NCBI GenBank assembly: GCA_036782475.1
Contig: DAIPYY010000001.1
Span: forward strand, 1-48,095
DNA length: 48,095 bases
Reading direction: 5' to 3'
From: Candidatus Saccharimonadota bacterium
GTDB taxonomy: Bacteria > Patescibacteriota > Saccharimonadia > Saccharimonadales > UBA4665
The notes under the pieces are model-generated. The model saw only the letters and a program-made list of their open reading frames with translations. It did no database searches and had not been told where the DNA came from. Below, piece after piece: positions 21,390 to 47,925 of the stretch (the stretch's first letter is position 1; each line of letters opens with the position of its first letter). Both the position numbers and the translations under genes were made by a program.

Positions 21390-22064
21390 TTAGCTCGGCT
21401 GGGCGAAGACGAGGGCGTCAACCTGCTTGGCGCCTGCTTCGCGGAGCGCGCGGGCCGCTGACTCAAGCGTTGCGCCGGTGGTGCAGACATCGTCGATCAG
21501 GACGATATGCGCCCCTTTAATCTTGTCCGAGTAACGCACCCGGAACGCGCCATCAAGATGACGCAGGCGTGCGGCGCGGCTTGCACCGACTTGGTGGGCC
21601 TGGCCAAGCCTGACAAGCGGGCAGGCACTTGTACGGCCGCTTAAGCGAGACAGCTCGCGTGCTAATACGACAGCTTGGTCATAGCCACGCTCTCGCACCC
21701 GCGTCGTCGCCGTCGGCACCGGCACCAATAGTACTTCAGTACCGAAATAGACAAGCTGCGGCCGCATTAGTACCGCTATTTCCATGAGTCCGCGGCGGGC
21801 TCGTTCATACTTCGCATGCCATAGCAACGTTTTTGCCGATGCCTCATAGCGGACCACGGCAGCGACCCGTCGCAACGGTGTCTGCCGGCGGCACGACCGG
21901 CATACGTCATATTGCAGGGTCCGCGTCCGACAGCGGTAGCAACACGGCGGAACCTTCGGAAGGCTGTCGGTGCATGTCCCGCATAACAAACGATTATCCT
22001 CCGCCCCGCAATCGATGCAGCAGAACGGAGCATATAGGCTGACGAATCGATCCAAAATGCTCAT
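21390..22064 (-). CDS. comF: ComF family protein (competence-associated phosphoribosyltransferase-like)
   Basis: N-terminal Cys clusters CIDCG...CGTC...CCYRC...CRSC and a C-terminal PRTase motif VLIDDVCTTGATL. Start at ATG 22064. Confidence 0.85.
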   Translation of the reverse strand: MSILDRFVSLYAPFCCIDCGAEDNRLLCGTCTDSLPKVPPCCYRCRTRTLQYDVCRSCRRQTPLRRVAAVVRYEASAKTLLWHAKYERARRGLMEIAVLMRPQLVYFGTEVLLVPVPTATTRVRERGYDQAVVLARELSRLSGRTSACPLVRLGQAHQVGASRAARLRHLDGAFRVRYSDKIKGAHIVLIDDVCTTGATLESAARALREAGAKQVDALVFAQPS

Positions 22065-22100
22065 GTTGTATTTTTTTCGTTGTAAATAAGTATTGGTCGG

Positions 22101-22130
22101 TTGCAGGTACACCGTTATCTCAGCTATACT
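22101..22130 (+). promoter_or_regulatory. promoter TTGCAG-18 nt-TATACT for the Hsp20 gene (about 60-nt leader with SD GGAGGG)
   Basis: TTGCAG at 22101-22106 and TATACT at 22125-22130. Confidence 0.5.
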
Positions 22131-22195
22131 GATTTTAACACAAAAAGGCAACTACGAAGTATTTAACCCCTAAGTAGGGCGGAGGGTAACAACTT

Positions 22196-22681
22196 ATGGC
22201 GCGACGAAACCGCGATGATGATTTATTACTGGAAGAAGATGAACTGACTGCTGCGTTCTTGGGCGATGACACACCCATGGCGCCAGCCGATAGCGGTGCG
22301 GCTCCGGCAAACGGCGCTGCAGCCGAAGAAGAGTGGAGCGAAGAAGAAGCCGTACTGCCCGGGCAATTGGCGGTCGACGTGTACGAAACTCGCGAGAAAC
22401 TGGTCGTCAAGGCACGTACTGCCGGCGTCAACAAGAGTGATCTCGATGTCAGCATTGCCGACAATACACTGACGATCCGCGGCACGCTTTCCTCGGGTGA
22501 CGATGACGAAGTCGAGAACTACTTCATGCAGGAGTGCTACTGGGGCGAATTCAGCCGCAGCATCGCTTTGCCGCTTCCCGTCAAAGAGGAAGAAATCGAA
22601 GCAGTCCTGAAGGACGGCGTCCTGACCATCAGCTTCAGCAAGGTCAAGCAAGACACTGTCAAGAAAATCCAGGTTGTATAA
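22196..22681 (+). CDS. Hsp20/alpha-crystallin family small heat-shock protein
   Basis: LAVDVYETREKLVVKARTAGVNKSDLDVSI...GEFSRSIALPLPV...AVLKDGVLTISFSK matches the alpha-crystallin domain pattern. Confidence 0.9.
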   Translation: MARRNRDDDLLLEEDELTAAFLGDDTPMAPADSGAAPANGAAAEEEWSEEEAVLPGQLAVDVYETREKLVVKARTAGVNKSDLDVSIADNTLTIRGTLSSGDDDEVENYFMQECYWGEFSRSIALPLPVKEEEIEAVLKDGVLTISFSKVKQDTVKKIQVV

Positions 22682-22759: not shown

Positions 22760-22790
22760 ACAAAAACACCCGCTCCAAGGAGCGGGTGTT
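22760..22790 (-). terminator. intrinsic terminator of the pilin gene array
   Basis: Perfect 11-bp stem ACACCCGCTCC-AA-GGAGCGGGTGT. On the minus strand it is followed by TTTTTGT. Confidence 0.7.
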
Positions 22791-22810: not shown

Positions 22811-23233
22811 TTATGCCGCGATAGTGCTTGTTTTGTTGAGCACGAAGTGAACGATGACCTGTGCCAGCGCCACGATAACGAGGCCGATAAGCGCGTAGAT
22901 GATGGTGTTTTTCGCGTTCGTGATCTTGCCGCTCTCGCCACCGGAGGTGATGTATTTGGCACCGCCCCAGATAATCATGATGACGGCGATCACACCGACT
23001 ACTACGGAGATGATGTTCACGATAAGGGTAATGATGTCGGTCAGGTTGTCACCTGTCGAAGTGTCACCCGGGGTACAATCACCGCTTAAGTCGCCATCGA
23101 GGTTAGTTCCTTGCGATAGACAGTCGGTAATGCTCGATTGAGCGTATACCGGTGCCGAAAGGGCAAGGGGAACTCCAACGACCGCCAGAGCGACTAAAAG
23201 GCCGGCGGCAATTCTTTTTATCTTTGCTATCAT
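22811..23233 (-). CDS. T4SS pilin, VirB2/TrbC-like (paralogue 1, candidate major pilin)
   Basis: Signal peptide ending PVYA/QS, Cys pair (DC...DC), two hydrophobic helices flanking the loop AKYITSGGESGKITNAKN. Own promoter, SD and terminator. Confidence 0.8.
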   Translation of the reverse strand: MIAKIKRIAAGLLVALAVVGVPLALSAPVYAQSSITDCLSQGTNLDGDLSGDCTPGDTSTGDNLTDIITLIVNIISVVVGVIAVIMIIWGGAKYITSGGESGKITNAKNTIIYALIGLVIVALAQVIVHFVLNKTSTIAA

Positions 23234-23269
23234 ATCAGTTCATTTCCTTTCTTATTGCTTTACGTTTAG

Positions 23270-23297
23270 TGTATATCACGTTTGGGGCATTTTTCAA
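23270..23297 (-). promoter_or_regulatory. promoter TTGAAA-16 nt-TGaTATACA in front of pilin paralogue 1
   Basis: Minus strand reads TTGAAAaatgccccaaacgTGaTATACA, then a leader of about 30 nt with AAGGAAA. Confidence 0.55.
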
Positions 23298-23313
23298 CTA
23301 TAAACCCTCTCTT

Positions 23314-23745
23314 TTACCCGAGCGGCACGAGGCGGACTATAGAAGTTTTCTCTTTTGGAGTAGCAGCCTCCTTCGTCACTTTGAGCACATTACGCACGAG
23401 GAATTGTGCAAGGGCTACGATAACGAGACCGATGACGGCATAGATCAGGGCATTTTTTGCGGTCGTGACTTTGTTGGTATCACCGCCGGACGTGATGTAC
23501 TTCGCACCAGCGAAGATTATCATGATCACGGCCAGCAGACCGACAATGATACTGAGCACGTTGATGACCGACCGTATGACACTGGTAAGATCACCGCCGC
23601 CGTTGTCGTCGCAGTTCGTTCCGCTGCCGACAGCCTCGCAGACCGTTTCTTTGGTGGTCGCGGCACTTGCTGTCGCGGGCGTCGCGACGATTGCCGTCAG
23701 GGGGACAATGATGCTGAGCGTAAGTATGAGAAACCATTTTTTCAT
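23314..23745 (-). CDS. T4SS pilin, VirB2/TrbC-like (paralogue 2)
   Basis: Signal peptide ending ATASA/AT, Cys pair (VCEAVGSGTNC), helix-loop-helix with AKYITSGGDTNKVTTAKN. Starts 1 nt after the upstream stop, with SD AGGGGG inside the upstream gene. Confidence 0.8.
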   Translation of the reverse strand: MKKWFLILTLSIIVPLTAIVATPATASAATTKETVCEAVGSGTNCDDNGGGDLTSVIRSVINVLSIIVGLLAVIMIIFAGAKYITSGGDTNKVTTAKNALIYAVIGLVIVALAQFLVRNVLKVTKEAATPKEKTSIVRLVPLG

Positions 23746-23746
23746 A

Positions 23747-24154
23747 TTATAAAAACCCCCTTATGATCGCTACTATTATGACATCTGCAAGCGCGATAAT
23801 CACAAGGCCGACGAGCGCTCCAATGAGCGCATTACGCGCACCGACCGCCTTTTGGGTGTCACCGCCGGAAGTGATATACCGCATTCCCGAGACGATGATG
23901 ATAAAGACGGCGGCGATACCCGCTATAAGCGCGATAAGCTGAGTAACTCTGATAAGTATTCCGTCGCTTCCTGTAAGTGGGTTTGCTTCCGGGTCAGTAG
24001 TTTCACAGGTAGGTGAATCAGTGGCTTTACCAGTGCATGCTTCTTCGAGTATGTTAGTCTCAGCCGCAAATACCGGCTGTGTGAGGGTGAATGGCGCAGC
24101 AAGTCCACTGAGCATGAGCAGGGAAATCACCATTAGCATAATCTTCCGAATCAT
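23747..24154 (-). CDS. T4SS pilin, VirB2/TrbC-like (paralogue 3)
   Basis: Start at ATG 24154 (TGATG overlap with the upstream stop). Signal peptide ending PVFA/AE, Cys pair (ACTGKATDSPTC), loop MRYITSGGDTQKAVGARN. Confidence 0.8.
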   Translation of the reverse strand: MIRKIMLMVISLLMLSGLAAPFTLTQPVFAAETNILEEACTGKATDSPTCETTDPEANPLTGSDGILIRVTQLIALIAGIAAVFIIIVSGMRYITSGGDTQKAVGARNALIGALVGLVIIALADVIIVAIIRGFL

Positions 24155-24471
24155 CAGGATACTCCCTGGATAGCAAAGGTGACAATAGCGACTGCCGATA
24201 CCGAGACTATTAGCCCGATTGCGGCATACAAGATGCCCTGGCGGGCTTCCGCCATCTTTTGCGGCTCGCCGTTCGCGGTGATATACCGGAAACCGTTGAT
24301 GACGATCATCAGCAGGGCAATTGCAGCAGCAAGTCCGAACGCGATGGTCAAGCCATTGCGCCACAACATTTTCGCGCGGTCGCCCGGATCCATATTCGGC
24401 AAGGGAGAGAGGTCTATCTGCGGCGTGGTTGCCGCCACCTTGAGCAGGAAGGCGTGAAGTTGTGTCATCAT
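24154..24471 (-). CDS. VirB2/TrbC-like pilin paralogue 4 (short, no classical signal peptide, no Cys pair)
   Basis: 105 aa with two hydrophobic helices flanking FRYITANGEPQKMAEARQ. ATGA overlap with the upstream gene and TGATG overlap with the downstream gene. Confidence 0.7.
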   Translation of the reverse strand: MMTQLHAFLLKVAATTPQIDLSPLPNMDPGDRAKMLWRNGLTIAFGLAAAIALLMIVINGFRYITANGEPQKMAEARQGILYAAIGLIVSVSAVAIVTFAIQGVS

Positions 24472-25244
24472 GATGTCAAAGCCTTTCCGAGGAAGACAAC
24501 GACTCCCCTTGCTACAAGCGCAACTGCCAGCGCAATAAGCGCATTGATAATCGTACTCTGGGCGCGCTTCGTTATATCGGGCGTACCTTGGCTCGTGATG
24601 TACTGTATGCCTCCTGTCACGATGAATGCGATGGCGATATAGGCAGTGACAATGAGAAGGTCATCGACAATGGCAAGTGCGACCGCCGGGATTACGCCTA
24701 CGTTACCCCCCGAGGGTAGCAACGGTAGGTCCTGGCTGACATTACAAGTCTGAGGGTTGATTTGATTCTGCGGAATATATGCATACCATGTTTTGAGGCC
24801 AAGGAATTGGCGCTGACAGCTCACGCCGCTCGTCTGTACGACATTATATGGGGTCATAAACTGTACGAACGAGCCGAGCAACAGGAATGCCACAAGCCCC
24901 ACCAGCGCCTGCGTGATGGTACGTTTGCCCTTGGCGACCTTTTGCGGATCGCCGGCCGAAGAGCCATATTGTATGGCACCCCATATGATACCACCGACAA
25001 CAGCAACTCCTGCAACTATGGCAAGGAGTCGTATGAGCGGGTTGACATACTTTGCGACGGCGCATGACGTTGCATCACCTTGCGACCCCGTCGGGCAGCA
25101 GACTCTGCCCTGCTTATCACTCGTAAGCGGCGTTTGGCCGGCAGGACATGCCGCACTCGCGACCGGCGGGAACGCCATAGTGACCGTCAAGAACAAGCCG
25201 ACTGATACAAACAGAAGCGCGATACACGAAAGCAATCGTTTCAT
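24468..25244 (-). CDS. tandem double-module VirB2/TrbC-like pilin
   Basis: Signal peptide ending VASA/AC. Module 1 loop is IQYGSSAGDPQKVAKGKR and module 2 loop is IQYITSQGTPDITKRAQS. Each loop sits between two hydrophobic helices and each module follows a Cys-containing external segment. Confidence 0.75.
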   Translation of the reverse strand: MKRLLSCIALLFVSVGLFLTVTMAFPPVASAACPAGQTPLTSDKQGRVCCPTGSQGDATSCAVAKYVNPLIRLLAIVAGVAVVGGIIWGAIQYGSSAGDPQKVAKGKRTITQALVGLVAFLLLGSFVQFMTPYNVVQTSGVSCQRQFLGLKTWYAYIPQNQINPQTCNVSQDLPLLPSGGNVGVIPAVALAIVDDLLIVTAYIAIAFIVTGGIQYITSQGTPDITKRAQSTIINALIALAVALVARGVVVFLGKALTS

Positions 25245-25252
25245 TAAGCATA

Positions 25253-25258
25253 ACTATA
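25253..25258 (-). promoter_or_regulatory. -10 box TATAGT, 8 nt upstream of the tandem-pilin ATG
   Basis: Minus strand reads acagTATAGTtatgcttaATG. Confidence 0.35.
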
Positions 25259-25316
25259 CTGTTTTGTTATTGTTCAATCAAGTATCAAAGAGCTTGTTTC
25301 CTCTTGGTAAATCGAG

Positions 25317-26510
25317 TTATTCGATTCGCTCAAGACCGCCAAGCCATTTCGACCGCGACCAATCGCAAATGACAATATTAGGGTTGTAGCTCAACGTTGC
25401 TTGCTGCGAATCCTCGACCATGGGAGGAGTAATATTTTGCATCATATCCCAGTCCATGAATCCATCAAGCCCATCTTTTCGTTGACTCACATGGAAAAAT
25501 TGCACAAGTGAAAATTTGCCACTCTCAGGAGCAATCTGTCCTGATGGGTTATAGTATGCTTCGCTTACTCCTGCTTCCGGCGCATACACCGCCATGGTCA
25601 GCACGCTATTTCTTTTCTCATCGGAGTTTTTTTGCTGGTCGCGAGCAGCTGCAAATACATATAACGCACCGTCGGGATTGTTTATAGGATCGTATTCGGC
25701 ACATTTTGCATCACCGCCCCTTGAAGTTATCCATTCATAGTCGTACGCGAGCGGCTTTTGTCCGCCCCAGTCCGGATGGTATGAATTAATAATAATCGTA
25801 GGATCGGCCACGTTGTCCCGCATCCACTCTTCACGAGTGCCGATACCCCAGAAGGGATCTTGCGCGTATTCGTAAACCCCTTTTGGCCGCACGTCGAGCA
25901 TAGAAATGACTTTGCGTGCATTCGTACGATCACCGTTTTGGTAGAGTAGCTTCGCCGTTTTTTGTAACATAGACAAACGGATCATTAACATCTGGGGGTC
26001 ATCGACGGATGTTGCCATCCAAGGGGCATAGCCTGCTTCGAGCGTTTCTACGATTTGCTCCCTCAGTTTTGCGTTTGAAACTTTGGAACCTTCGACCAGA
26101 TCATGCGTGATGCCCTGTAAGAACTGTGATTTAGTCTCTGGATCCTGTCCTATGAATTTCTTTTCGCTCATCTTTTTGGCCTTTGCGTACTTCGGGGGCA
26201 CCTCATAGCTCGACTGCGGGGCCTGCTCTGAAGGGGTGGCACTGGACGAGGGACTGGATTCGGTCGCGGTGGGTGTAGGTGTCTCCGAGGCGGGCGGAGT
26301 GGTAGGATCAAGCGTAGAAGAAACGGGAGTCGGAGTTGTGTCGGCGGGATTGATTTCACCGGGAGCGGTAGCGCAGCCGGACAGGGCAAAGGCCCCGACC
26401 GCAGTTATCGCGACGGCTTTTCGGGACATACGTTCATATATACCGACCACTGTCTGTCTTACATAATCAAAAGCTCGCGCGCTTTCTTGATGCAGTGCTG
26501 TCTCGCCCAT
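25317..26510 (-). CDS. putative lipoprotein (Pro/Thr/Ser-rich linker plus about 300-aa globular domain), heads the pilin region
   Basis: Lipobox AFALSGC after a hydrophobic segment. ATG 26510 has a strong SD (GAGGAGGaaacgATG). An internal ATG at 26429 would give a canonical MSRKAVAITAVGAFALSGC signal. Confidence 0.7.
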   Translation of the reverse strand: MGETALHQESARAFDYVRQTVVGIYERMSRKAVAITAVGAFALSGCATAPGEINPADTTPTPVSSTLDPTTPPASETPTPTATESSPSSSATPSEQAPQSSYEVPPKYAKAKKMSEKKFIGQDPETKSQFLQGITHDLVEGSKVSNAKLREQIVETLEAGYAPWMATSVDDPQMLMIRLSMLQKTAKLLYQNGDRTNARKVISMLDVRPKGVYEYAQDPFWGIGTREEWMRDNVADPTIIINSYHPDWGGQKPLAYDYEWITSRGGDAKCAEYDPINNPDGALYVFAAARDQQKNSDEKRNSVLTMAVYAPEAGVSEAYYNPSGQIAPESGKFSLVQFFHVSQRKDGLDGFMDWDMMQNITPPMVEDSQQATLSYNPNIVICDWSRSKWLGGLERIE

Positions 26511-26718: not shown

Positions 26719-29700
26719 ATGAAACATAAACTGAAACTTTCTTTTTGGGCACTGGGAATCCTCGTCCTCATCATGTCCCAGCTTTTCCTCCTCGCCCCCG
26801 CGCAGAAAGCTTCCGCGCAAAGCCTGACTATTGATAGCCTACGGGATAAGACTCATGCTTTCGCGGTATACACCGTATGGCATAGATGTCTCTCCGAATA
26901 CGATGGGACTAGAGTAACAAATTTGAGGATGAACCTTAATTTCGGTACGAACCAGAAAACGTACATCCTCGGTTTTGCACGATCTGACGGTGACAATAAC
27001 GACGGGACAATAGCATGTTCTGACGCGGCGCGGCTCTGGGCTGCTCTTGCGGGCTACTCGGATGCAGACACCATGATGAAGGATCTCGGTTTTACGGTAA
27101 CGGTGCCTGGCTGTACCAGCGCACCCTGCACGACCGCCGGAGTTACATACTATGAGCTTGGTAAAACAACATCGAAATCATCTCTTCCCGGTAAGGTCGA
27201 GTCCATTTCTAGAGAGAAGGGAATTGCTACGTCTCTCCCCACGTGGGGTAGGTATATTCTTTCGGCCACAGCGGCAGAGGCAAAATGCCAGCCATCAAGC
27301 ACGACGGGGCCGGCAGCCCGCGCCAATCCAACGGTTAGTATTAACGTAGTTGGAGATGATATGGGCACCCTGGTCAGCAAGACATATGATGTCAGCACCT
27401 CCGAAATCGTGCCTGCATACCCGAACATGAGCGGAGGGAATAATGCGAGCTGTAAGTATCTAACCGATGATATTAAGGCCAGTGCCACAAAGTTTAGCAG
27501 TGCCCTTGTCGAAGACCGCATCACCACCGCTATTTCGCTTGCCGAAACTGCCATTTGCGAGCAGTTGCAAATAACAAACGACCGGGAAAAACAGAATTGT
27601 CTCAGTAACTTTGGTTCTTACCTTAAAACCTGTATCGACGACTACTACACCGGTAATCTGACGTCGGGTACTCGCAGCAGGGCAGATCCATTTGACACGG
27701 ATTACGTAGCAACTTGCGTCGAAACCAAAGCAAAAAAAGCAGGCTACAATATCTCTGCAGAAGATATCTCATCCATTCTAGGCGACGCTCAAAATCAAGC
27801 TACACCGAGCACAACCCCTTCGAGCGATTCGGCTACCGATATATGTGACATCCTTGGTGAAGAAGTGCCCATGAAGTGGATGGCATGCGCGGTACTCACT
27901 GCCATGAACGGTATCGTCAACGCCCTCTACGACATGATTCAAAACCTGCTCTACACCCCCATCGACCAAACATTGGCATCGAATCAGTACAATACAAGCA
28001 TCTCGAATTTCCGCATCTTCGGCATGGCTTTTATCTTCATCATCGGACTTATCATGGTGATAGCACAGGCAACAGGATCCGAGATAGTCGACGCATACAC
28101 CGTGCGAAAGGTCCTGCCAAAACTTGGCATTGCTATCATCGGCATTGCTATCGCCGTACCTATCCTCAAGATTCTTATCACCTTCACCAATGACCTCGGT
28201 ATAATGGCGGGCAATTTTATTACCGACATAGCGCCGACAGAGGTCATTAAATCAAATGCAGTAAAAAGTGATGCCGTGGGAGCTCTCGTCGGAACGGGTA
28301 CGCTTGGTATTATTGGCATACTAACCGCCGCAGTCGCACTGGTTGCCCAAGGGCCGGCGGCACTCACTTACATAGTCGTGGCCGTGGTGGCGCTACTCAT
28401 CGCCTTCGTCACGCTAGCCATGCGGCAGCTCGTCATCATCGTGCTTATCCTTTTCGCGCCTATTGCTATAGCCGCTTCCGCACTGCCCGGCACAGAAAAA
28501 CTTTGGAAGTTTTGGCGCGGCACGCTCATCACCACGCTCATGATGTTCCCCATCATCATGATCTTTCTCAAATCCGGTGTTTTCATGGCGTCAATCTTTG
28601 GCAATATCGGCGACCAGCTGAACAACCAAATGTACTACCTCATCGCAGCAGTCATATTTATCGCACCGTATTTTATGCTACCGCTCGCATTCAAGATGGC
28701 CGGTGGCCTCGTCGGCAATATATTTGGCATGGTCAATGACCGCAGCAAAGGCCTCTTCGACCGCATGCGCAATATGCGAGGCAATGCGATGAAGAAAAAC
28801 TGGCAAGGTTTAATGGAGGGGAATAGATACAAAGGGAATACAAGACTTGGCAACTTCATAAACAAGGCCGGAACTACTGCAAACGCATTTAGAACTGGCC
28901 AGGTAGGATACGATATGTCCCAATGGGGATCGCAAGTTAGGAGCGCTCAATCGAGGCAAGACCTTACGGCCGCAGAAGAAGCCCTGCAGAAGAATCCTCA
29001 TATGATGCGTCTCAAGTCCAATGACGACTACATGAGTGCTGCGATTCGCTTCCAAAATGCCGAGCAGCAGAAGGCTTTCCTCATGAACAAAGGCTACAGC
29101 GACACAGAATCAAGCGAAGCGGTTGCAACGATACGTTCTGCACGACGAAGCATGTCAAATGAAGCATTTGAAAATGCTGCCATGTTAGCGCTCCCCGGAA
29201 CCGGCACGTATGCGAAAACTGTGTGGAATGCTCAAACCCAGCAGTTTGAGGGCGGTAAGGCAGAGATGCTTCAGGATATTTTACGTCTTAGCAATGGAGA
29301 TCAAAACCGTGCCGACACCCTGCTTGCTATGATGCGTCAAGGCGCCCAAGGCGCAAGGCGGTTCGATCTTGCTGGCGGTAGCTATGGTGACGATAGAAGC
29401 AGAATGTATGCATTCGCAAGTGGCACAAGGAGCTCGGATGAGGTCAATAAGGAGTCTATCCAGGACTTCATCAAATCAAATGGTGCGGGTGCTATAGCTC
29501 AGGTCCGCGGTAATACGGTCAAACCTTTCGCGGAAGTTATTGCCCAGGATCTCCAAGCGGCTCAGCAGCAATACGGGTTTAATTCTCCTGAATTCCAGAA
29601 GAAGCTCGCCTCCGTTGCTGGCCTATACGATACCATGGGGTCTGCCTCTCCTGAGAATGCTGAAGAATACGCAGACGTGGTTATGTCCTTGCAGTTTGCT

Positions 29701-29898
29701 GGCGGTACACAGGATGTCCAGCAGCTAATCGAAGCCAACAGGGCAAACCCAGACTTTGTTAAAATGCGGCGTGAATATCAGAGTCAATATGCATATCAAG
29801 CAGCCCAAGCGGCTCAGCAACAACCGCCTCCCGCTGGTGGGCCAGGAGGACCTGGTGGACCTCAACCTGGTCAGCCAGGAGGACCTGCTGGACCCTGA
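26719..29898 (+). CDS. VirB6/TrbL-like polytopic T4SS membrane protein with a large Cys-rich ectodomain and a long cytoplasmic tail
   Basis: Signal peptide (..AQKASA/QS), a Cys-rich external domain of about 400 aa, about 7 TM helices (aa about 425-665), then a tail of about 390 aa ending QQQPPPAGGPGGPGGPQPGQPGGPAGP. Confidence 0.65.
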   Translation: MKHKLKLSFWALGILVLIMSQLFLLAPAQKASAQSLTIDSLRDKTHAFAVYTVWHRCLSEYDGTRVTNLRMNLNFGTNQKTYILGFARSDGDNNDGTIACSDAARLWAALAGYSDADTMMKDLGFTVTVPGCTSAPCTTAGVTYYELGKTTSKSSLPGKVESISREKGIATSLPTWGRYILSATAAEAKCQPSSTTGPAARANPTVSINVVGDDMGTLVSKTYDVSTSEIVPAYPNMSGGNNASCKYLTDDIKASATKFSSALVEDRITTAISLAETAICEQLQITNDREKQNCLSNFGSYLKTCIDDYYTGNLTSGTRSRADPFDTDYVATCVETKAKKAGYNISAEDISSILGDAQNQATPSTTPSSDSATDICDILGEEVPMKWMACAVLTAMNGIVNALYDMIQNLLYTPIDQTLASNQYNTSISNFRIFGMAFIFIIGLIMVIAQATGSEIVDAYTVRKVLPKLGIAIIGIAIAVPILKILITFTNDLGIMAGNFITDIAPTEVIKSNAVKSDAVGALVGTGTLGIIGILTAAVALVAQGPAALTYIVVAVVALLIAFVTLAMRQLVIIVLILFAPIAIAASALPGTEKLWKFWRGTLITTLMMFPIIMIFLKSGVFMASIFGNIGDQLNNQMYYLIAAVIFIAPYFMLPLAFKMAGGLVGNIFGMVNDRSKGLFDRMRNMRGNAMKKNWQGLMEGNRYKGNTRLGNFINKAGTTANAFRTGQVGYDMSQWGSQVRSAQSRQDLTAAEEALQKNPHMMRLKSNDDYMSAAIRFQNAEQQKAFLMNKGYSDTESSEAVATIRSARRSMSNEAFENAAMLALPGTGTYAKTVWNAQTQQFEGGKAEMLQDILRLSNGDQNRADTLLAMMRQGAQGARRFDLAGGSYGDDRSRMYAFASGTRSSDEVNKESIQDFIKSNGAGAIAQVRGNTVKPFAEVIAQDLQAAQQQYGFNSPEFQKKLASVAGLYDTMGSASPENAEEYADVVMSLQFAGGTQDVQQLIEANRANPDFVKMRREYQSQYAYQAAQAAQQQPPPAGGPGGPGGPQPGQPGGPAGP

Positions 29899-40730: not shown

Positions 40731-41840
40731 ATGGCTACCTATAAAGTACTACAGGATATTGAGGCAGAGGACAAGCTCGTCGGTCCGTTTACTTTGTGGC
40801 AGTTCATCTATCTGTTCGTGGCGGGCGCTTGCGGCTACCTGAGCTTCATCTCAATCGCAAAGAATGTGCCGATTTTCCTTATCCTTCTCCTGCCGGTTAC
40901 CTTGTTTGCGGGCTTCTTAGCCATCCCCTGGGGGAGTGACCAGCCGACAGAGATATGGGCACTTGCGAAACTGCGGTTTTTCCTGAAGCCGCGGCGACGT
41001 ATCTGGAACCAGGACGGCATGACTGAACTCGTCAGTATTACGGTGCCGAAGACGATCGAACGGCAGCTGACGAACGGGCTCAATCAGCATGAAGTCCATA
41101 GCAGGCTGAACGCCCTCGCAAGTACGCTCGACAGCCGTGGATGGGCGGTCAAGAATATTAATGTCAATTTATCCGCTTTGCCCACAGCCACGATGCAGCC
41201 GTCCGACCGCCTCGTCGATGTCGGGTCAATACCCCAAGAAGTGATAGCGGTGGATGTACGCCCGGGAGACGATATCTTGGATGAGACTGCCAATACGGTC
41301 GCTCATAATTTCGACGCGATGATCGACGAAAGAACCTCCCAGAAGCGGCAAAAACTGGTTGATTTCATGAACAACCCCTTGCCGGAATCGCCGTCAGCCG
41401 TCCCCGCGGCTGCACCGCTGCCGGCAGTATCTGCCGCACAGCCTGTTTCGGCGCCCGCTCAAGCGGCCCAGTGGTTTGCTCCGCCTCCTACTGCCGCTGC
41501 TCCATTTGCTGCCCCCATCATGTCGCCTGCCGCACCGCAGCCCGTCATGAGCATGGCAGTTCCGCAGGCGGTGGAGCCGACCGCCGCCGAAGAGGCGCTT
41601 GTCGCTCAGCTGAAAGCAAAAAACGAGCAACAGGAAAGCGCCTACACGCACCTGCAAAGTATCAAGACACCGGAAGAGCTGGAGGCGGAAGCGGCAGCCC
41701 AGCAAGTTGCTCCCCCAGAGACGCCGCCGCGTATGACATCAGAGAAGCAGGCTGCTATAATGAACCTATCACGAGACGACAATAAAAGTATTGCAACGCT
41801 CGAGAAAGAAGCGAATGAAGTGGTAATTTCGCTTCATTAG
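40731..41840 (+). CDS. PrgI/VirB3-like T4SS membrane protein with a long Ala/Pro-rich C-terminal extension
   Basis: N-terminus YKVLQDIEAEDKLVGPFTLWQFIYLFVAG plus two TM helices is the PrgI-family pattern found directly upstream of VirB4 in Gram-positive-type T4SS. About 250 extra residues follow. Confidence 0.7.
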   Translation: MATYKVLQDIEAEDKLVGPFTLWQFIYLFVAGACGYLSFISIAKNVPIFLILLLPVTLFAGFLAIPWGSDQPTEIWALAKLRFFLKPRRRIWNQDGMTELVSITVPKTIERQLTNGLNQHEVHSRLNALASTLDSRGWAVKNINVNLSALPTATMQPSDRLVDVGSIPQEVIAVDVRPGDDILDETANTVAHNFDAMIDERTSQKRQKLVDFMNNPLPESPSAVPAAAPLPAVSAAQPVSAPAQAAQWFAPPPTAAAPFAAPIMSPAAPQPVMSMAVPQAVEPTAAEEALVAQLKAKNEQQESAYTHLQSIKTPEELEAEAAAQQVAPPETPPRMTSEKQAAIMNLSRDDNKSIATLEKEANEVVISLH

Positions 41841-41866
41841 AGAGCGAACGAACAGGGTGGCATAAT

Positions 41867-42802
41867 ATGAATCCAAACCAACAATATCAACAACCAACTC
41901 AGCCACAACCCCAGTATGTACCACCAGCTGGCATGCCGGCAGCACAGCCGCAGTACGCCGCTACAGCACAGCCTATGCCAATCAATACCATACCGCCCGC
42001 TCCCTTGCAGGCCGTCAGTGCCGCGCCGGGTCAGCAGGCTCCGCCCGCCGGAGCTGGGGCAATAGCACCCAAGACAAATCCCAACAGCACGCAGAACACG
42101 CTTCTCATATCTGAAATTCGCGACGGTGTCGTCATCATGAGCGACGGCAGCTTCCGGGCGGTCGTCATGGTCAAAAGCATCAACTTTGACCTGATGAGCC
42201 CGCAGGAGCAAGAAAGCATCGAATACGGGTACCAGGGGTTCCTGAACTCGTTGTATTTCCCGATTCAGATTTTCCTGCGGTCGGAAAAAGTCGATTTACA
42301 GCCCTACATCGAGCGCCTCGACAAAATCCGCACCGAACACGACAACATGCTGCTCGCCATGCTGATGGAAGATTACATCAACTACATCGACCAGCTGGCA
42401 CTCCAGACCAACATCATGGACAAGAAGTTTTACATCGTGATACCGTATTTCCCGACCGCCAACCCAGAGATGGCGACGACCCAGAACAAGAATTTCTTTA
42501 AAGGGCTCGTCGAGATGTTCAGTAAGCAGGAAAACCATATTGTCATCAATGAGGCGGACCTGGAAAAAGCCAAGGCCGAGCTGCGCAACCGTGTCCAAGC
42601 GGTGTTGGGAGGGCTGCAGCAATGTTCCATCCAGGGGCTGCCGCTTGACACCCAGGAGCTCATCGAGCTGTACTATGACACCTACAACCCGGATACCGCC
42701 ACCAGGCAACAGCTCAAGAATTTCAATGATTTGACCGCTGACATCGTCACGAAAGGCGAGGGCATGGCACAACAGGCACATCTGCAAAGGGAGTTACAGT
42801 AA
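41867..42802 (+). CDS. stand-alone VirB4 N-terminal-domain-like protein with a Gln/Pro-rich N-terminus
   Basis: No P-loop. The segment order parallels the N-domain of the next gene: FRAVVMVKSINFDLMS with ARTYYVYGYPRQVFTG, FPIQIFLRSEKVDLQPYIERL with IDISIYVYPVESQLVLDNL, and KKFYIVIPYF with FFRFGLYFTIYA. The TAATG overlap couples it to VirB4. Confidence 0.55.
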   Translation: MNPNQQYQQPTQPQPQYVPPAGMPAAQPQYAATAQPMPINTIPPAPLQAVSAAPGQQAPPAGAGAIAPKTNPNSTQNTLLISEIRDGVVIMSDGSFRAVVMVKSINFDLMSPQEQESIEYGYQGFLNSLYFPIQIFLRSEKVDLQPYIERLDKIRTEHDNMLLAMLMEDYINYIDQLALQTNIMDKKFYIVIPYFPTANPEMATTQNKNFFKGLVEMFSKQENHIVINEADLEKAKAELRNRVQAVLGGLQQCSIQGLPLDTQELIELYYDTYNPDTATRQQLKNFNDLTADIVTKGEGMAQQAHLQRELQ

Positions 42803-44715
42803 TGGCAAAACAAAAGATCGATCCCGTCCTCTTGGCGCAGCAACAGCGGGCCCGCGAGCAGGCTGAAGTAGCCGAAGCATTCCGCAAAGGCGTGACGGCG
42901 CTCCGCGATTTTATCGCCCCCAGCAGTATTGAGTTCTTCGGCAGCTATTTCCAGCTTGGCACGCGCCTGGCCCGAACCTACTATGTCTACGGCTACCCCC
43001 GACAGGTGTTTACCGGCTGGCTCAGCGGACTCGTCAACCTCGATGAAATCATAGATATATCGATTTACGTCTATCCTGTCGAGAGCCAGCTTGTGCTCGA
43101 TAACTTACGCAAGAAAGTCACCCAGCTCGAAGCGGGCCTCCAGATCGACGCAGAAAAGGGCCGGGTACGCGATCCGAGCAAGCAGGCTGCCATCCTCGAC
43201 GCCGAGGAAATGCGGGACAAACTCCAGGTGGGCGAGGAGCGGTTCTTCCGTTTCGGACTGTATTTCACCATCTACGCCAACTCACAGGATGAGCTTGAGT
43301 TCATCAGCCATAAAGTGGAAAGTATGCTCGGCCAGCAGCTTGTCTACAGCAAAGCCGCGACCAGCCAACAGGAACAGGGACTCAACAGCGTCGCACCGCA
43401 GATGGTCGACCAGCTTCAAATCCGGCGTAACATGTCGACAGGCGCCATCAGCACGAGCTTCCCGATCACTTCGGCCGATCTTACCCAGGATAATGGCATC
43501 CTTTACGGCATCAACATGCATAATAGCGGATTGGTCATTTTCGACCGGTTCACACTCGAGAACGGCAACTCGGTCGTCTTCGCGAAATCCGGCGCCGGCA
43601 AATCATTCACCGTAAAACTTGAAGCATTGCGCAGCCTGATGTTCGGCACGGAAATCATCATCATCGACCCAGAGAATGAGTATGAACGCATGTGCGACGC
43701 TGTCGGCGGAGCGTATGTCCGGCTCAGCCTCAATTCTTCGACACGCATCAACCCGTTTGACCTGCCGAAAGTCGTTGACGTCGAAGAGGCCGACAACGCC
43801 CTTCGCTCCAGCCTGATCACACTGCACGGACTGCTCCGCCTCATCATGGGCGGCGCACAGGCGCAGCTCGTCGGCGGCAACACCACGATTATGCCGGCGC
43901 TCAGCCCGTCGGAAGAAGCCGACCTCGACGCGGCACTCATCACGACATACGAGAAAGCGGGTATCACCCAAGATCCTCTGACTCATACCGGAATCCCACC
44001 TACTATAACCGACCTCTATGATACGCTGCTACACATGGGTGGTAATGGGCCGCAGCTGGCCCAGCGGCTACGCAAGTATACTAGCGGCACGTTCGCCGGC
44101 ATATTCAGCCAGCAGAGCAACATCGACATCAACAACCCGATGGTCGTCTTCAACGTCCGCGATCTCGAGGACGAACTGCGGCCGGTCGCGATGTACATCG
44201 TATTGAATTACATCTGGAACAAGACGAAGAGTGACCAAAAACGCCGCATCCTCATCGTTGACGAGGCATGGCAGCTCATGAAGTACGAAGACAGCGCTAA
44301 CTTCCTTTTCAGCCTCGCCAAGCGCGCACGTAAATACAATCTCGGTATTACGACTATCACGCAAGATGTCGAGGATTTCATGGGATCGCGCATGGGCCGT
44401 GCTATCGTCGCCAATGCCAGTATGCAGATACTCCTCAAACAGAGCCCGAGCGCCATCGACGTTCTTGCCGACGTGTTCAAACTGACAAGCGAGGAGAAAA
44501 AGCGTCTTGGACAATTCCCAGTAGGACAAGGCCTGTTTTTCGCCGGCCAAAACCATGTCCACATCCAGGTCGTCGCCAGCCCCACCGAAACGGGACTCAT
44601 CACCACCAATCCGACGCAAGTACAGGCTATCAAGCAAGGCGACCTAAACCAGCCCCAGGGAACCATCGACCTTCAAAACCAACTCTACCCCGGGAGTATG
44701 AATAACTTGTCGTAA
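42802..44715 (+). CDS. virB4: T4SS VirB4-family ATPase (Gram-positive PrgJ/TcpF type)
   Basis: Walker A AKSGAGKSF (about 43582-43608), IIIDPENEY, Walker B RILIVDEAWQL, ITTITQDVEDF. Confidence 0.88.
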   Translation: MAKQKIDPVLLAQQQRAREQAEVAEAFRKGVTALRDFIAPSSIEFFGSYFQLGTRLARTYYVYGYPRQVFTGWLSGLVNLDEIIDISIYVYPVESQLVLDNLRKKVTQLEAGLQIDAEKGRVRDPSKQAAILDAEEMRDKLQVGEERFFRFGLYFTIYANSQDELEFISHKVESMLGQQLVYSKAATSQQEQGLNSVAPQMVDQLQIRRNMSTGAISTSFPITSADLTQDNGILYGINMHNSGLVIFDRFTLENGNSVVFAKSGAGKSFTVKLEALRSLMFGTEIIIIDPENEYERMCDAVGGAYVRLSLNSSTRINPFDLPKVVDVEEADNALRSSLITLHGLLRLIMGGAQAQLVGGNTTIMPALSPSEEADLDAALITTYEKAGITQDPLTHTGIPPTITDLYDTLLHMGGNGPQLAQRLRKYTSGTFAGIFSQQSNIDINNPMVVFNVRDLEDELRPVAMYIVLNYIWNKTKSDQKRRILIVDEAWQLMKYEDSANFLFSLAKRARKYNLGITTITQDVEDFMGSRMGRAIVANASMQILLKQSPSAIDVLADVFKLTSEEKKRLGQFPVGQGLFFAGQNHVHIQVVASPTETGLITTNPTQVQAIKQGDLNQPQGTIDLQNQLYPGSMNNLS

Positions 44716-44724
44716 GGACCATTC

Positions 44725-47700
44725 ATGGCATCGTCACAAACACTCATTCCTACGGGAGAAAATCAATACGACGACGAAGATATGGAGCGCCTGAGGCGCC
44801 AGGAACGTGGTGTCACAGCCGCGGAAGACGGCGCTCCGACCGATGCTGTCGATATGAGCGGCATTGACCCGACCGCTGACCCCGACTATGTCGCACCTGC
44901 CGGAAAAGCTGGCGGCACTGCTGCCGGCGCCCCTAACTCCGCCTCAAACCTCGAACAAACAGCCCTTGGCAACCAGCCGGGCCTCGACGCGGAAGACGGT
45001 TTTTATACGGGAGGTGGAGGAAAGGGCAGAAAGCGCCGAAAATTCTGGACCAGACGACGGGCAATGGCGGGCGGCACTATCGCTGGATTTTTTGTAGGCG
45101 GGGGTATTCTCCTGTCGCCGTTCGTGATGGGTCCGCTTGAGTTCATCCATTTTGCACAGAGCCTTTCGGGCCCACACTTCGGTATATCCGAGCGTGCCAG
45201 CACACGAAATATAACCCGGTTCTATAAATTTATAACCGGGAGGGGCACAAGCACCTGTACCGCAAAAAACTGTCTCGTCCAAGATGGCGGCAAAGGAGAC
45301 ACACGCCTGAATTTCCTCGAGAGAAAATACAATAAAGTTATTTTCAAGAACATCGAGAGTAAGGGCTTCAAGATGTGGACCGATTCGAGGACGCAAACTT
45401 TTAAGGGATGGCGTATTGATACGTCCTCTAAAAATTCGCCGTTCAAGGGCATGAATGAGTCGATGATCGAAGATGCCCTGAAAGCATACGGCGTTAAAAA
45501 AGCAGATATTAAAAAAGTGGGCGGCACCGGGGGGTACTGGATAAAAAACGAGGCGCTGTTTAAGCGCGGCCAGACAAGGCTTGTAATGGCGATGTTGCAA
45601 GAGTCCGGCTATAGCAAAGTAGGATCGTGGATTAGGGCACGGCAACTCTGTAAATTCGCCGGCTGTGGTTTCCACCCCCTGAAAATATTGGACGAAAAAC
45701 TCAATGACAAACTCGACAAGGGACTCAAAAAACTGAAAGAAGAGTATGAAAAAAGCCGCAGGGCCAGTATCACCGGCACTGAAGCGTCAGGGGCGACTAT
45801 CGATACCACCAACACGGAGGAGCAAACAACCGGCGAGGACGGAGAACGCACCAACCAGTCTGTCGATGAATCCCTGAAGACCACGAAAACCACGACATCG
45901 CCGACGGCAATCAGTGATTTCATGAAATCTTTTGCCGCTCGTCCTTCCACGAAGATAAGTGCCAATGTTCTTGATGTTGTCGGTTATGCGTGTCTCGCCG
46001 CCAATATATATAAGGCTGCCGGCGATATCAACTTCGACCAAACTGTTATGCCGGCAATTAGGTTGGCAACGGAGCAAATCGCGACAGGCTCCCAAATAGA
46101 AGCAAGCAGCCTCATAGATGGTACCTTTAATTCAACAAGTCTTGAGCTTGCACATGAATACCTCGAGGCAAAGGATTCTTCTGGCAAAACAACAAGCTGG
46201 AGCGATGCTGCAAATATCCGCCAAAACAACGGTCTTAGCGGCGGGACGGATATTTCCTCGGATAAAAAAGAAATCTTATCGAACCCGGGCAAAGGCCCAT
46301 CCTGGCTTGAGTGGACCGAACCGATGGTAGACTTTTGCAGCAATCAAGCCATACAAGCTACTATGGGGGTACTTAGTATTGGGATAGGAGTGTTGAGTGG
46401 TGGTATGGTATCTACGATCGTGGGGGCTGTCGTTGGGTATTTTGCCGCCCCGGCAGCCCTAAATTTAATCGCGCAGAGTGTGGCAGGTAATGCTCTCGAT
46501 ATTGCCGGAGTAAAAGGAATCGAGATGGGTCAGTACGCTGATTTTGGGGCATTCTTTGGTGCTAATCTCGCAAGGCAGATGCGTGGAGGTAGGATCCTCA
46601 GCAGCGCAAGCGCGCTCAAACTTGCGCAAGATAATATGGATACCAAAAACGAAGAATTCGCATCGCAAAGTATCGCCTATAAACTCTTCAATGCATATGA
46701 CAGCAAATCGCTCATCTCGCGGGTCGTCGATACCCAGTCTACCTATGCGACCGAAAACATTGCGTCGACGATTAATAACTTCCTGGGTATCGGTACGAGC
46801 ACATTATCAACCATCGGCGGACTTTTCTCGAAAAAATCGAGCGCAGCAACTACTATGTACGATTATGGCATCCCGATGGTTGGATTCAGCCTCGAAGAGC
46901 AGGAAAACCCCCTTACGGAAAACCCGTATGAGAACGCAGCAATCGTAGGTGCCTTCCTCGACACTCCTGCCAGTAGCAGCCTCAAGGATCGTGCGCTGCG
47001 TTGTAACGGTGTAGAGTTCTACAAAGACGATCAATTTGGCTGGAGCATACGTAGCATCGCCGATCCGAACGCGGGCGCCGAGAATAATGTATTTCAAAAA
47101 TATGTCACCGGACATCTTGATAGTGACTGCGGTACCGATCCGGTCATCGCCGCCGCTGATTCGGATGCTACCGTTGCGACGGGAACGGGGTACGTAGCAG
47201 CAGCGGAAGATGACATGTGGACGCGCATGCGGAAGTTCATCGACGACCTCAGTGAGTTTGAGTCATACACGTGTCTTATGGCCGATGATGAAACCTCATG
47301 CGATAACAGCGGCTTCGGAGCTACTACTGCCGCCAGCAGTAGCACGGTCAATACCGACGACCTATACAAGGACTCAACCTCTATAAGTTGCGACACTCGC
47401 ACGAAAGATCTAGGAACACAAGAGGTCCAGCATGAAAGCAGTACATTTAAAATCAGGGTCTGCGGGATAAAAGAAATACCCAGTTCTGGACAGGAAAGCA
47501 CCAAAGGAAACCAGTACTACATCGAAGGCGCCGATGGCATGACAATCGTCAACTCAAGAGTATCGACGATCTTTATGAACCTGGCAGAGGATGCGACTGC
47601 GAATAATACTAAACTTTCAAGTAGCTCAAGTTTCCGCATGCACTCACATCAGCAAGATTTATGGAACGCCAATCCCGACCCGGAAGCAGTGGGGCCCCCG

Positions 47701-47925
47701 GGAAAAAGCAATCACGAAGTAGGAATAGCGGTGGACTTCAATACGGGTGGGTCGAAAAAATCAGGCGCATCATGCGACGCGAGGGCGACAAGTAGCTCAG
47801 CCATGTGGAAGTACCTCAACGGCTCATCGGGAGAGCCGGGCGCACAGAAATTCGGAATATACCAGTACGCCGTCGAGCCGTGGCATTGGGATGCATCCCC
47901 GACACGCTGTAAGGAGCCTTTGTGA
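44725..47925 (+). CDS. large membrane-anchored protein with a C-terminal M15 (VanY-type, LAS fold) D-Ala-D-Ala peptidase domain; candidate T4SS cell-wall hydrolase
   Basis: TM helix near aa 115-140 and a central TM cluster near aa 545-590. C-terminus has SSFRMHSHQQDLW, SNHEVGIAVDF (47707-47739) and EPWHWD (47875-47892), the SxxR / SxHxxGxAxD / ExxH zinc-peptidase pattern. Confidence 0.75.
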   Translation: MASSQTLIPTGENQYDDEDMERLRRQERGVTAAEDGAPTDAVDMSGIDPTADPDYVAPAGKAGGTAAGAPNSASNLEQTALGNQPGLDAEDGFYTGGGGKGRKRRKFWTRRRAMAGGTIAGFFVGGGILLSPFVMGPLEFIHFAQSLSGPHFGISERASTRNITRFYKFITGRGTSTCTAKNCLVQDGGKGDTRLNFLERKYNKVIFKNIESKGFKMWTDSRTQTFKGWRIDTSSKNSPFKGMNESMIEDALKAYGVKKADIKKVGGTGGYWIKNEALFKRGQTRLVMAMLQESGYSKVGSWIRARQLCKFAGCGFHPLKILDEKLNDKLDKGLKKLKEEYEKSRRASITGTEASGATIDTTNTEEQTTGEDGERTNQSVDESLKTTKTTTSPTAISDFMKSFAARPSTKISANVLDVVGYACLAANIYKAAGDINFDQTVMPAIRLATEQIATGSQIEASSLIDGTFNSTSLELAHEYLEAKDSSGKTTSWSDAANIRQNNGLSGGTDISSDKKEILSNPGKGPSWLEWTEPMVDFCSNQAIQATMGVLSIGIGVLSGGMVSTIVGAVVGYFAAPAALNLIAQSVAGNALDIAGVKGIEMGQYADFGAFFGANLARQMRGGRILSSASALKLAQDNMDTKNEEFASQSIAYKLFNAYDSKSLISRVVDTQSTYATENIASTINNFLGIGTSTLSTIGGLFSKKSSAATTMYDYGIPMVGFSLEEQENPLTENPYENAAIVGAFLDTPASSSLKDRALRCNGVEFYKDDQFGWSIRSIADPNAGAENNVFQKYVTGHLDSDCGTDPVIAAADSDATVATGTGYVAAAEDDMWTRMRKFIDDLSEFESYTCLMADDETSCDNSGFGATTAASSSTVNTDDLYKDSTSISCDTRTKDLGTQEVQHESSTFKIRVCGIKEIPSSGQESTKGNQYYIEGADGMTIVNSRVSTIFMNLAEDATANNTKLSSSSSFRMHSHQQDLWNANPDPEAVGPPGKSNHEVGIAVDFNTGGSKKSGASCDARATSSSAMWKYLNGSSGEPGAQKFGIYQYAVEPWHWDASPTRCKEPL

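Follow-up and report, generated by a model that had tools for sequence, protein, structure and literature searches.

A five-gene, six-module VirB2/TrbC-type pilin operon beside a chromosomal type IV secretion system of a Saccharimonadota bacterium

Saccharibacteria are tiny bacteria that live on other bacteria. In a stretch of 48,095 nucleotides (nt) from Candidatus Saccharimonadota bacterium (assembly GCA_036782475.1, contig DAIPYY010000001.1, positions 1 to 48,095; the window), five consecutive minus-strand genes at 22811-25244 code for six helix-loop-helix modules, here called A to F. We hold with high confidence that their products are pilins of the VirB2/TrbC superfamily belonging to a Saccharibacterial type IV secretion system (T4SS). 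It is also rather probable that the region is the pilin operon of a chromosomal Gram-positive-type (MPF-FATA-like) T4SS and serves a heteromeric pilus or conduit, with A-D as minor and E and F as major-type subunits. A five-gene, six-module VirB2-like operon is of the kind that almost all Saccharibacteria carry alongside a T4SS, and the array as such has already been published; what we add concerns the constancy of its order, the behaviour of its individual modules and its expression signals. The genes and the modules that they encode are as follows.

24468-25244, minus strand: gene 1, protein P5, 258 amino acids (aa), a tandem pilin with modules A and B
24849-25058, minus strand: module A hairpin, P5 residues 63-132, placed with our own hidden Markov model (HMM) of the hairpin core
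24483-24692, minus strand: module B hairpin, P5 residues 185-254, placed with the same HMM
24154-24471, minus strand: gene 2, protein P4, 105 aa, module C; 50.9 bits against PF18895
23747-24154, minus strand: gene 3, protein P3, 135 aa, module D; 37.0 bits against PF18895
23314-23745, minus strand: gene 4, protein P2, 143 aa, module E, putative major-type pilin; 56.3 bits against PF18895
22811-23233, minus strand: gene 5, protein P1, 140 aa, module F, candidate major pilin; 58.5 bits against PF18895

All five proteins lie above the gathering score of 26.6 of the family PF18895 (T4SS_pilin), with 37.0-58.5 bits and E values from 3.7e-9 to 7e-16; the score of P5 is 38.4 bits, with two stretches matched. 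P1 also passes PF04956 (TrbC/VirB2) with 31.5 bits against a cutoff of 27.9, P2 falls just short at 26.9 bits, and the Pfam scan lists no match to this family for P3, P4 or P5. By hydropathy, each module consists of two hydrophobic helices of ~30 residues around a basic loop with 1-4, mostly 3-4, Lys or Arg residues. The AlphaFold2 models, which are of moderate confidence (pLDDT ~69), contain two helical hairpins in P5 (helices 58-95/100-130 and 185-217/222-257) and one in P1 (64-96 and 101-139). A preliminary description of this DNA, made from the letters alone, had proposed five open reading frames (ORFs) with six pilin modules, each a pair of hydrophobic helices flanking a basic loop. The ORFs do lie at these coordinates, on the minus strand, and the observation stands far beyond chance; the six loop sequences it gave all stand verbatim in the translations, and hydropathy and AlphaFold2 agree on the helices. 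The same description named the outcome that would overturn it, namely that no VirB2/TrbC-type profile would be hit, or that the proteins would turn out not to be surface-exposed, for example generic small membrane proteins unrelated to a T4SS. Helical hairpins are structurally uninformative, Foldseek returned non-specific hairpins only, and there are weak below-threshold matches to DctQ, Cyt_bd_oxida_II and similar families; against this, the PF18895 threshold is passed by all five proteins and the TrbC threshold by P1, and synteny with VirB6-like, PrgI, TrsD and VirB4 genes is kept in dozens of genomes, so that we give the generic explanation hardly any credence.

Outside the hairpins the proteins differ in their N-terminal parts. 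P5 has a Sec-type signal peptide (...PPVASA/A), a 4-Cys ectodomain and then the module A hairpin, and a linker of ~52 aa with a Cys pair and a GLKTWYAYIP motif leads on to module B; throughout its near-full-length homologs, about 57 in number, the Cys residues and the linker motif are invariant. The public gene call for P5 (P0001, 236 aa) begins at Met23 and loses the signal peptide, and the upstream ATG at 25244 is favoured by a 258-aa version (P0241) together with the homolog alignment. P1, P2 and P3 also have Sec-type leaders with AxA-like sites, as judged, like that of P5, by inspection, followed by short Cys-pair ectodomains. In P3 (...PVFA/A) translation starts from the ATG of MIRKIML and not from the GTG further upstream that a 205-aa mechanical ORF uses; in P2 (...ATASA/A) the hairpin is followed by a 21-aa C-terminal tail; and in P1 (...PVYA/Q) an acidic Cys-pair ectodomain precedes a highly conserved hairpin, VVGVIAVIMIIWGGAKYITSGGESGKITNAKNTIIYALIGLVIVALAQ. 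P4, unlike the other four, has no canonical Sec signal peptide recognisable by inspection and consists of a short N-terminal segment, a conserved (I/L)DxSxLP motif and the hairpin. Module C orthologs in other loci measure 91-116 aa and have this N-terminal pattern in common with P4; most loci have a C-position gene without a Sec-type signal peptide, starting with a short amphipathic N terminus and then a conserved (I/L)DxSxLP(N/K). Pairwise identity among the paralogs is only 17-45% (45% for P1 and P2), and they must therefore be old. P1 has 1339 homologs, several of which NCBI names 'pilin', and the named homologs of P5 and P1 all come from Candidatus Saccharibacteria or Saccharimonadales.

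We compared the array with 72 related loci (numbered with the prefix L), which we scanned with the core HMM and which, having been seeded with the A-B linker motif, are biased towards this architecture. In 40 loci the array is bounded by a VirB6-like gene on one side and the downstream Hsp20 gene on the other, and 35 of these 40 hold exactly six modules, spread over five genes as in the window (13 loci) or over six (22 loci). The order of modules is constant: A (large), B, C (~100 aa), D (~130 aa), E and F (~140 aa), and the gene order of the window array matches that of L001, L002, L071 and L072; the best species-representative match of P5 is 49% identical. When each module of 45 six-module loci was matched to its best counterpart in another genome, that counterpart sat at the same position in 45/45 cases each for A, B and C, 44/45 for F, 39/45 for D and 32/45 for E, the remaining 13 E modules having an F as their best match. 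As judged from these matches, the six modules are positional orthologs that diverged anciently, a fixed ordered set of distinct subunits. A and B are fused in 17 of the 45 loci and separate in 28, and in two independent metagenome-assembled genomes (MAGs) it is B and C that are fused instead (L030:10311-11117 and L034:10332-11006). The combination of a fixed, ordered, orthologous set with fusions between neighbouring genes points to co-assembly of distinct subunits rather than to alternatives. Arrays can also be larger, with nine modules in L039, eight in L058 and seven in L069; in these A-D remain single-copy and the extras are all of the E/F type, which reaches 3-5 copies, and L012 has five modules with a single E/F-type copy. 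Lineage-specific duplication was seen only in the E/F class, and F is the most conserved module across genomes (positional matrix; alignment A2).

These comparisons bear directly on the idea that the paralogs are a repertoire for variation, that is, interchangeable alternative pilins for adaptation to host strains or evasion of recognition. The idea was raised for such arrays by Quinonero-Coronel 2025 (PMC12102498) and has been proposed for the VirB2 paralogs of Bartonella and Anaplasma; the preliminary description likewise offered surface variation for host recognition and pointed to copy number and variability among related genomes as the place to look. Some sequence divergence is in keeping with it. 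In comparison with L071, the closest relative, identity is 85% for A+B and for C, 60% for D, 68% for E and 73% for F, so that D, E and F are less well kept (60-73%) than A+B and C, and ectodomains (56-81%) are less well kept than hairpin cores (77-97%); the 3-5 E/F-type genes in L039, L058 and L069 can be read in the same sense. The ratio of nonsynonymous to synonymous substitution rates (dN/dS) against L071, calculated in search of diversifying selection on the ectodomains, is well below 1 wherever computable, dS being saturated or undefined in most segments, and we take it, qualitatively only, that ectodomains evolve faster than cores under overall purifying selection. What was found is otherwise the opposite of the variable copy number and missing one-to-one orthology of an antigenic-variation-type repertoire: strict positional orthology in a fixed order across species-level genomes, with a near-diagonal best-match matrix; six modules in 35/40 bounded arrays and single-copy A-D in the expanded arrays examined; A+B and B+C fusions that imply co-assembly; and packed, overlapping genes behind one promoter-like site that imply co-expression. 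The array itself has no long repeats, inverted repeats or invertible elements that could support recombination, only weak paralog similarity (74% over 164 nt) and short matches at chance level. In Southlakia epibionticum, moreover, the pilin subunits are reported to be essential (PMC10633639). We therefore regard a variation repertoire as improbable for the array as a whole and plausible only for its E/F class. Among the three ideas of the preliminary description, major and minor pilins or a heteropolymeric fibre fits the comparative data best.

The proteins could also be secreted effectors, small signal-peptide proteins exported through the T4SS or Sec and acting on the host. A transcriptome preprint on TM7x labels the homologous small genes 'six putative effector genes', and four of our five genes have what look like Sec signal peptides. 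Against this reading, the modules are dominated by two ~30-residue hydrophobic helices and match pilin profiles, as integral membrane or polymer subunits would, and the cores are under strong purifying selection; we consider it very improbable.

Signals for expression around the array separate F from the modules before it. Three elements frame the operon or divide it.

25253-25281, minus strand: promoter-like site TTGATT-17-TATAGT, ending 8 nt before the ATG of gene 1
23234-23313, minus strand: spacer of 80 nt between E and F, with a strong Shine-Dalgarno (SD) sequence, GAAAGGA, at 23245-23251
22762-22789, minus strand: intrinsic-terminator-like hairpin, ACACCCGCTCCTTGGAGCGGGTGT, then a T run, after gene 5

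P5 and P4 overlap by ATGA, P4 and P3 by TGATG, P3 and P2 are separated by a 1-nt gap, and P2 and P1 lie 80 nt apart; the extreme packing described earlier thus holds for the two overlaps and the 1-nt gap and fails at the last junction. That junction is wide in general, with a median E-to-F gap of 74 nt (at least 40 nt in 93% of the 45 loci) against medians of -4 to 6 nt for A to B, B to C, C to D and D to E, and in 93% of loci the spacer ends in a strong GAAAGG(A/T) SD before F. A promoter of its own for F was considered and rejected: sigma-70-like matches in the E-F spacer reach 7.5 of 12, against 7.6 in shuffled sequence, and since they are no better than this we prefer translational control of F through the conserved SD. 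At the other end of the operon, no SD follows the promoter-like site of gene 1, and an SD-like 5-mer stands before gene A in 2% of loci. TTGnnn-17-TATAGT recurs ~8 nt from the gene A ATG in many related loci, and TAnnnT lies 4-12 nt upstream of gene A in 32 of 45; the promoter-like motif was found in L002, L004-L007, L010, L022, L032, L035, L037, L048 and L049. Because the site ends ~8 nt from the ATG and no SD intervenes, the operon mRNA is probably leaderless or nearly so. Taken together, the signals fit low, coupled expression of A-E and a boosted translation of F.

The array belongs to a T4SS locus that is chromosomal, the window also carrying genes for arginyl-tRNA synthetase, PolA, dUTPase, a P-type ATPase and four tRNAs. 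The components recognised are listed below.

26719-29898, plus strand: VirB6-like polytopic T4SS membrane protein, 1059 aa, divergent from the array and ~1.5 kb upstream of it
40731-47925, plus strand: remaining T4SS genes (the four that follow), about 15 kb from the array
40731-41840, plus strand: PrgI/VirB3-like gene (Pfam PrgI)
41867-42802, plus strand: TrsD-like gene (NCBIfam TrsD, sub-threshold)
42802-44715, plus strand: VirB4-like ATPase (Pfam P-loop_TraG/AAA_10)
44725-47925, plus strand: VanY-domain protein, a putative cell-wall hydrolase, 1066 aa (Pfam VanY)

The VirB6-like protein is 44% identical to an L001 protein annotated with PF19590 (TrbL_3) and has a sub-threshold match to the NCBIfam model CD3337/EF1877. 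Of the 72 related loci, 56 have a VirB6-like gene upstream of the array and on the other strand; PrgI, TrsD and VirB4-like matches, likewise on that strand and counted within a 10-kb flank upstream of the array, occur in 47, 43 and 42, respectively. Most relatives have the whole T4SS gene set within about 10 kb of the array. The locus is split in the window and its clade (L001, L004, L005 and L072), where the VirB6-like gene stays by the pilins and genes for a PP2C phosphatase, a P-type ATPase, PolA, dUTPase and a NUDIX protein lie between these and the PrgI-TrsD-VirB4-VanY genes. Among the window ORFs that were scanned we recognised neither a relaxase nor a coupling protein, and a tblastn search with P1 against 72,556 plasmids gave no match, so that at that sensitivity catalogued plasmids do not show this pilin type.

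We propose the following assembly of the subunits. Each module would sit in the membrane with both termini facing outward and the basic loop on the cytoplasmic side, and four of the five genes would use cleavable Sec signal peptides for this. That the N terminus faces outward is supported by L058, a Candidatus Saccharimonas sp. MAG in which the C- and D-type pilins carry ectodomains of 330-490 aa behind classical signal peptides. In these proteins, of 430 and 586 aa (L058:2699-3991 and L058:3988-5748), the C and D modules stand at the C terminus, and the ectodomains, Cys-rich with repeated GW(A)xD(P/A)D-like motifs, match nothing in Pfam or NCBIfam; both proteins are candidates for tip subunits that bind the host. 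The T4SS (VirB4, VirB3/PrgI and the VirB6-like protein) would then extract the modules from the membrane and assemble a heteromeric tube from them. Its shaft would be a polymer of F and probably of the closely related E, and A-D, single-copy minor subunits of which A and B are one polypeptide here, would make up a defined complex at one end, as a tip or as a nucleation layer. Stoichiometry could be set by the design of the operon, with one promoter-like site, A-E overlapping or abutting, and a spacer and SD that boost F. We have moderate confidence in this division into a minor end complex (A-D) and polymerising major-type subunits (E/F). The structure is most likely a contact or conduit with the host bacterium, an extension from the essentiality reported for Southlakia epibionticum.

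Several points weigh against a heteromeric pilus. A filament built of these proteins has never been observed, and the assignment of major and minor roles draws on indirect signals, namely SD strength, the spacer, conservation and the pattern of duplication; the candidate promoter that would have set F apart at the level of transcription failed. The T4SS core genes lie 15 kb from the array in this window, and the seeding of the locus set favours the architecture that we describe. With the AlphaFold2 models of P5 and P1 as queries, Foldseek found no PDB match at E<=0.001, only generic hairpins, phmmer and profile searches against PDB sequences gave no relevant match to solved VirB2 or TraA pilins, and the models themselves are only moderately confident; because fold and sequence searches of the PDB returned nothing significant, pilin homology rests on the Pfam profiles. 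We regard the PDB null as uninformative rather than negative, as hairpins hold too little signal for such searches. Finally, Gram-positive T4SSs are generally without pili (PMC12102498, PMC12857230).

This last point also supports an explanation in which the VirB2-like modules stay at the envelope as the stalk or channel of a monoderm T4SS and make no extracellular filament. P1, P2, P4 and P5 have a sub-threshold likeness (26.6-34.4 bits against a cutoff of 40) to NCBIfam NF045849, the pilin-like Mbov_0395 family of Mycoplasma integrative and conjugative elements (ICEs), and wall-less bacteria with Mbov_0395-type systems are not known to have pili. A fixed stoichiometric set of distinct subunits would suit a defined complex of this kind. 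On the other side, a polymer is suggested by F, one subunit that combines a strong translation signal with high conservation, and the large C and D ectodomains of L058 point outward. Conjugative pili, for comparison, are about 8-9 nm wide. Cryo-electron tomography of the Saccharibacterium Mycosynbacter amalyticus has revealed a tube or lance, barbed at its tip and 8.6-9.0 nm wide by 61-70 nm long, which projects from the inner membrane and is not assigned to any protein (PMC11880426). On balance we think a channel without a filament unlikely. Since the width of the tube or lance matches that of conjugative pili, it is a possible physical correlate of the array, a connection that is our own inference and not a published assignment.

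The heteromeric pilus can be drawn in a more specific form, which we put forward only tentatively and think doubtful. A-D, perhaps with E, could make up a hetero-oligomeric cap or nucleation layer that replaces the missing VirB5 and presents a surface for host recognition, with F beneath it forming the barbed lance or conduit of ~9 nm of Mycosynbacter amalyticus. The physical neighbourhood of the modules in such a cap is suggested by the A+B and B+C fusions, and C and D are able to carry large ectodomains. Exchange of material with the host through the F conduit would be part of this picture and is as doubtful. If five-membered (A-B-C-D-E), the cap layer would match the five-fold symmetry of conjugative pili. 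Should the whole hold true, no earlier T4SS of a monoderm would be known to form a pilus, nor any earlier T4SS pilus to have a tip complex of several paralogs.

The array takes its place among a known group. A 2018 preprint by McLean reported that across Saccharibacteria there is a syntenic array for 4-6 small proteins that have signal peptides and VirB2-like homology (10.1101/258137); Wang 2023 found the pilin array to be essential in Southlakia epibionticum, inside its T4SS cluster (PMC10633639); and Quinonero-Coronel 2025 compiled a catalogue of 441 arrays, each with 2-11 pilin genes, whose identity averages 25% and reaches at most 54%, and suggested adaptation to different host strains as their function (PMC12102498). 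In a 2025 FEMS review the VirB2-like pilins are six in number, conserved in structure but divergent in sequence, and a pilus conduit is considered possible (PMC12857230), and the function of the Saccharibacterial T4SS has been called 'completely unknown' (PMC11665869). The novelty implied in the preliminary description is accordingly lost, such arrays having been reported in 2018, found essential in 2023 and catalogued in 2025. With at least two divergent VirB2-like tandem genes near a T4SS, the window has what characterises a Saccharibacterial T4SS pilin array, and it has in common with the arrays of Southlakia epibionticum ML1 (SEML1_0006-0019), TM7x and the 2025 catalogue the PF18895/PF04956 family, the class of organism, the chromosomal T4SS context (VirB6-like, PrgI, TrsD, VirB4) and six divergent modules, its identities of 17-45% comparing with the published mean and maximum. 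It differs in being from a new genome, in having A and B fused and hence five genes instead of six, in the split of the T4SS locus, with VirB3, TrsD and VirB4 ~15 kb away, and in an apparently lineage-specific gene for a 397-aa lipoprotein. In the literature that we read on these arrays we met with no account of the positional orthology, of the invariance of A-D as opposed to the duplicability of E/F, of A+B or B+C fusions, or of the signals in the operon; they are modest additions and not a new category.

Among more distant systems, the Gram-negative VirB2/TrbC/TraA pilins (T-pilus, RP4, F-pilus) are alike in being small, with two long hydrophobic helices, a short basic loop and a leader (apparent by inspection in four of the five window proteins), in profile-level homology (PF04956, for P1) and in being encoded together with VirB3, VirB4 and VirB6 homologs. 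Those systems have one major pilin and an unrelated minor VirB5, whereas the window has six paralogous modules and no VirB5, a monoderm host, and no relaxase or coupling protein among the ORFs that were scanned. Anaplasma, Bartonella and Rickettsia are host-dependent bacteria that have, like the window, tandem arrays of divergent VirB2-like genes by a T4SS; theirs are regarded as antigenic-variation repertoires (PMC12102498), whereas arrays of the window type keep order, number and orthology. Type IV pili and type II pseudopili (GspG with GspH-I-J-K) offer an analogy only: an abundant shaft subunit is accompanied by single-copy paralogous minors, conserved in order in one operon and thought to be a tip or priming complex, but type IV pilins have one N-terminal helix and a globular head and are assembled by PilB/PilC, so that fold and machine are unrelated to those of the window pilins. 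The family of Mbov_0395 and MMCAP2_0565 (NF045849) is a VirB2-like hairpin of a monoderm MPF-FATA T4SS whose model P1, P2, P4 and P5 match over nearly the full length of the model; its gene lies on a mobile element with conjugation genes, and the window proteins, being below the cutoff, are not members. VirB2-like pilins are said to be absent from MPF-FATA systems (PMC12102498), and these sub-threshold matches hint that VirB2-like proteins exist in some of them.

In the one species tested, the epibiotic lifestyle depends on the Saccharibacterial T4SS as an essential system, and the pilin array is the feature that separates this T4SS from other Gram-positive T4SSs. A fixed set of A-B-C-D plus E/F replaces the vague notion of many pilins, perhaps for variation, with a structural model of minor and major subunits that can be tested, in which F is a candidate for filament purification or labelling and C and D are candidates for host recognition. 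The little or absent leader suggested by the signals before gene A may make leaderless expression in Saccharibacteria worth a genome-wide look.

A few neighbouring genes complete the locus. Between the VirB6-like gene and the array lies one further gene.

25317-26510, minus strand: predicted lipoprotein, 397 aa

It has the lipobox LSGC and a linker rich in Pro, Thr and Ser. Neither Pfam nor NCBIfam gave a match to it, and tblastn against the 72 related loci found none either, so that its gene appears to be a lineage-specific insertion. A 294-aa window protein likewise has no match in Pfam or NCBIfam. In the 1066-aa protein whose gene directly follows VirB4, the VanY (D-Ala-D-Ala carboxypeptidase) domain is C-terminal, and weak homologs of the protein follow VirB4 in 7 related loci; it may hydrolyse the cell wall for this T4SS and so correspond in function to VirB1. 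On the other side of the array, a convergent Hsp20 gene and a gene for a ComF-like phosphoribosyltransferase follow at 21390-22681. Downstream of the array in the 72 related loci, Hsp20 is present in 53 and ComF-like in 42, a synteny that may reflect a chaperone for the pilins or a link to DNA uptake.

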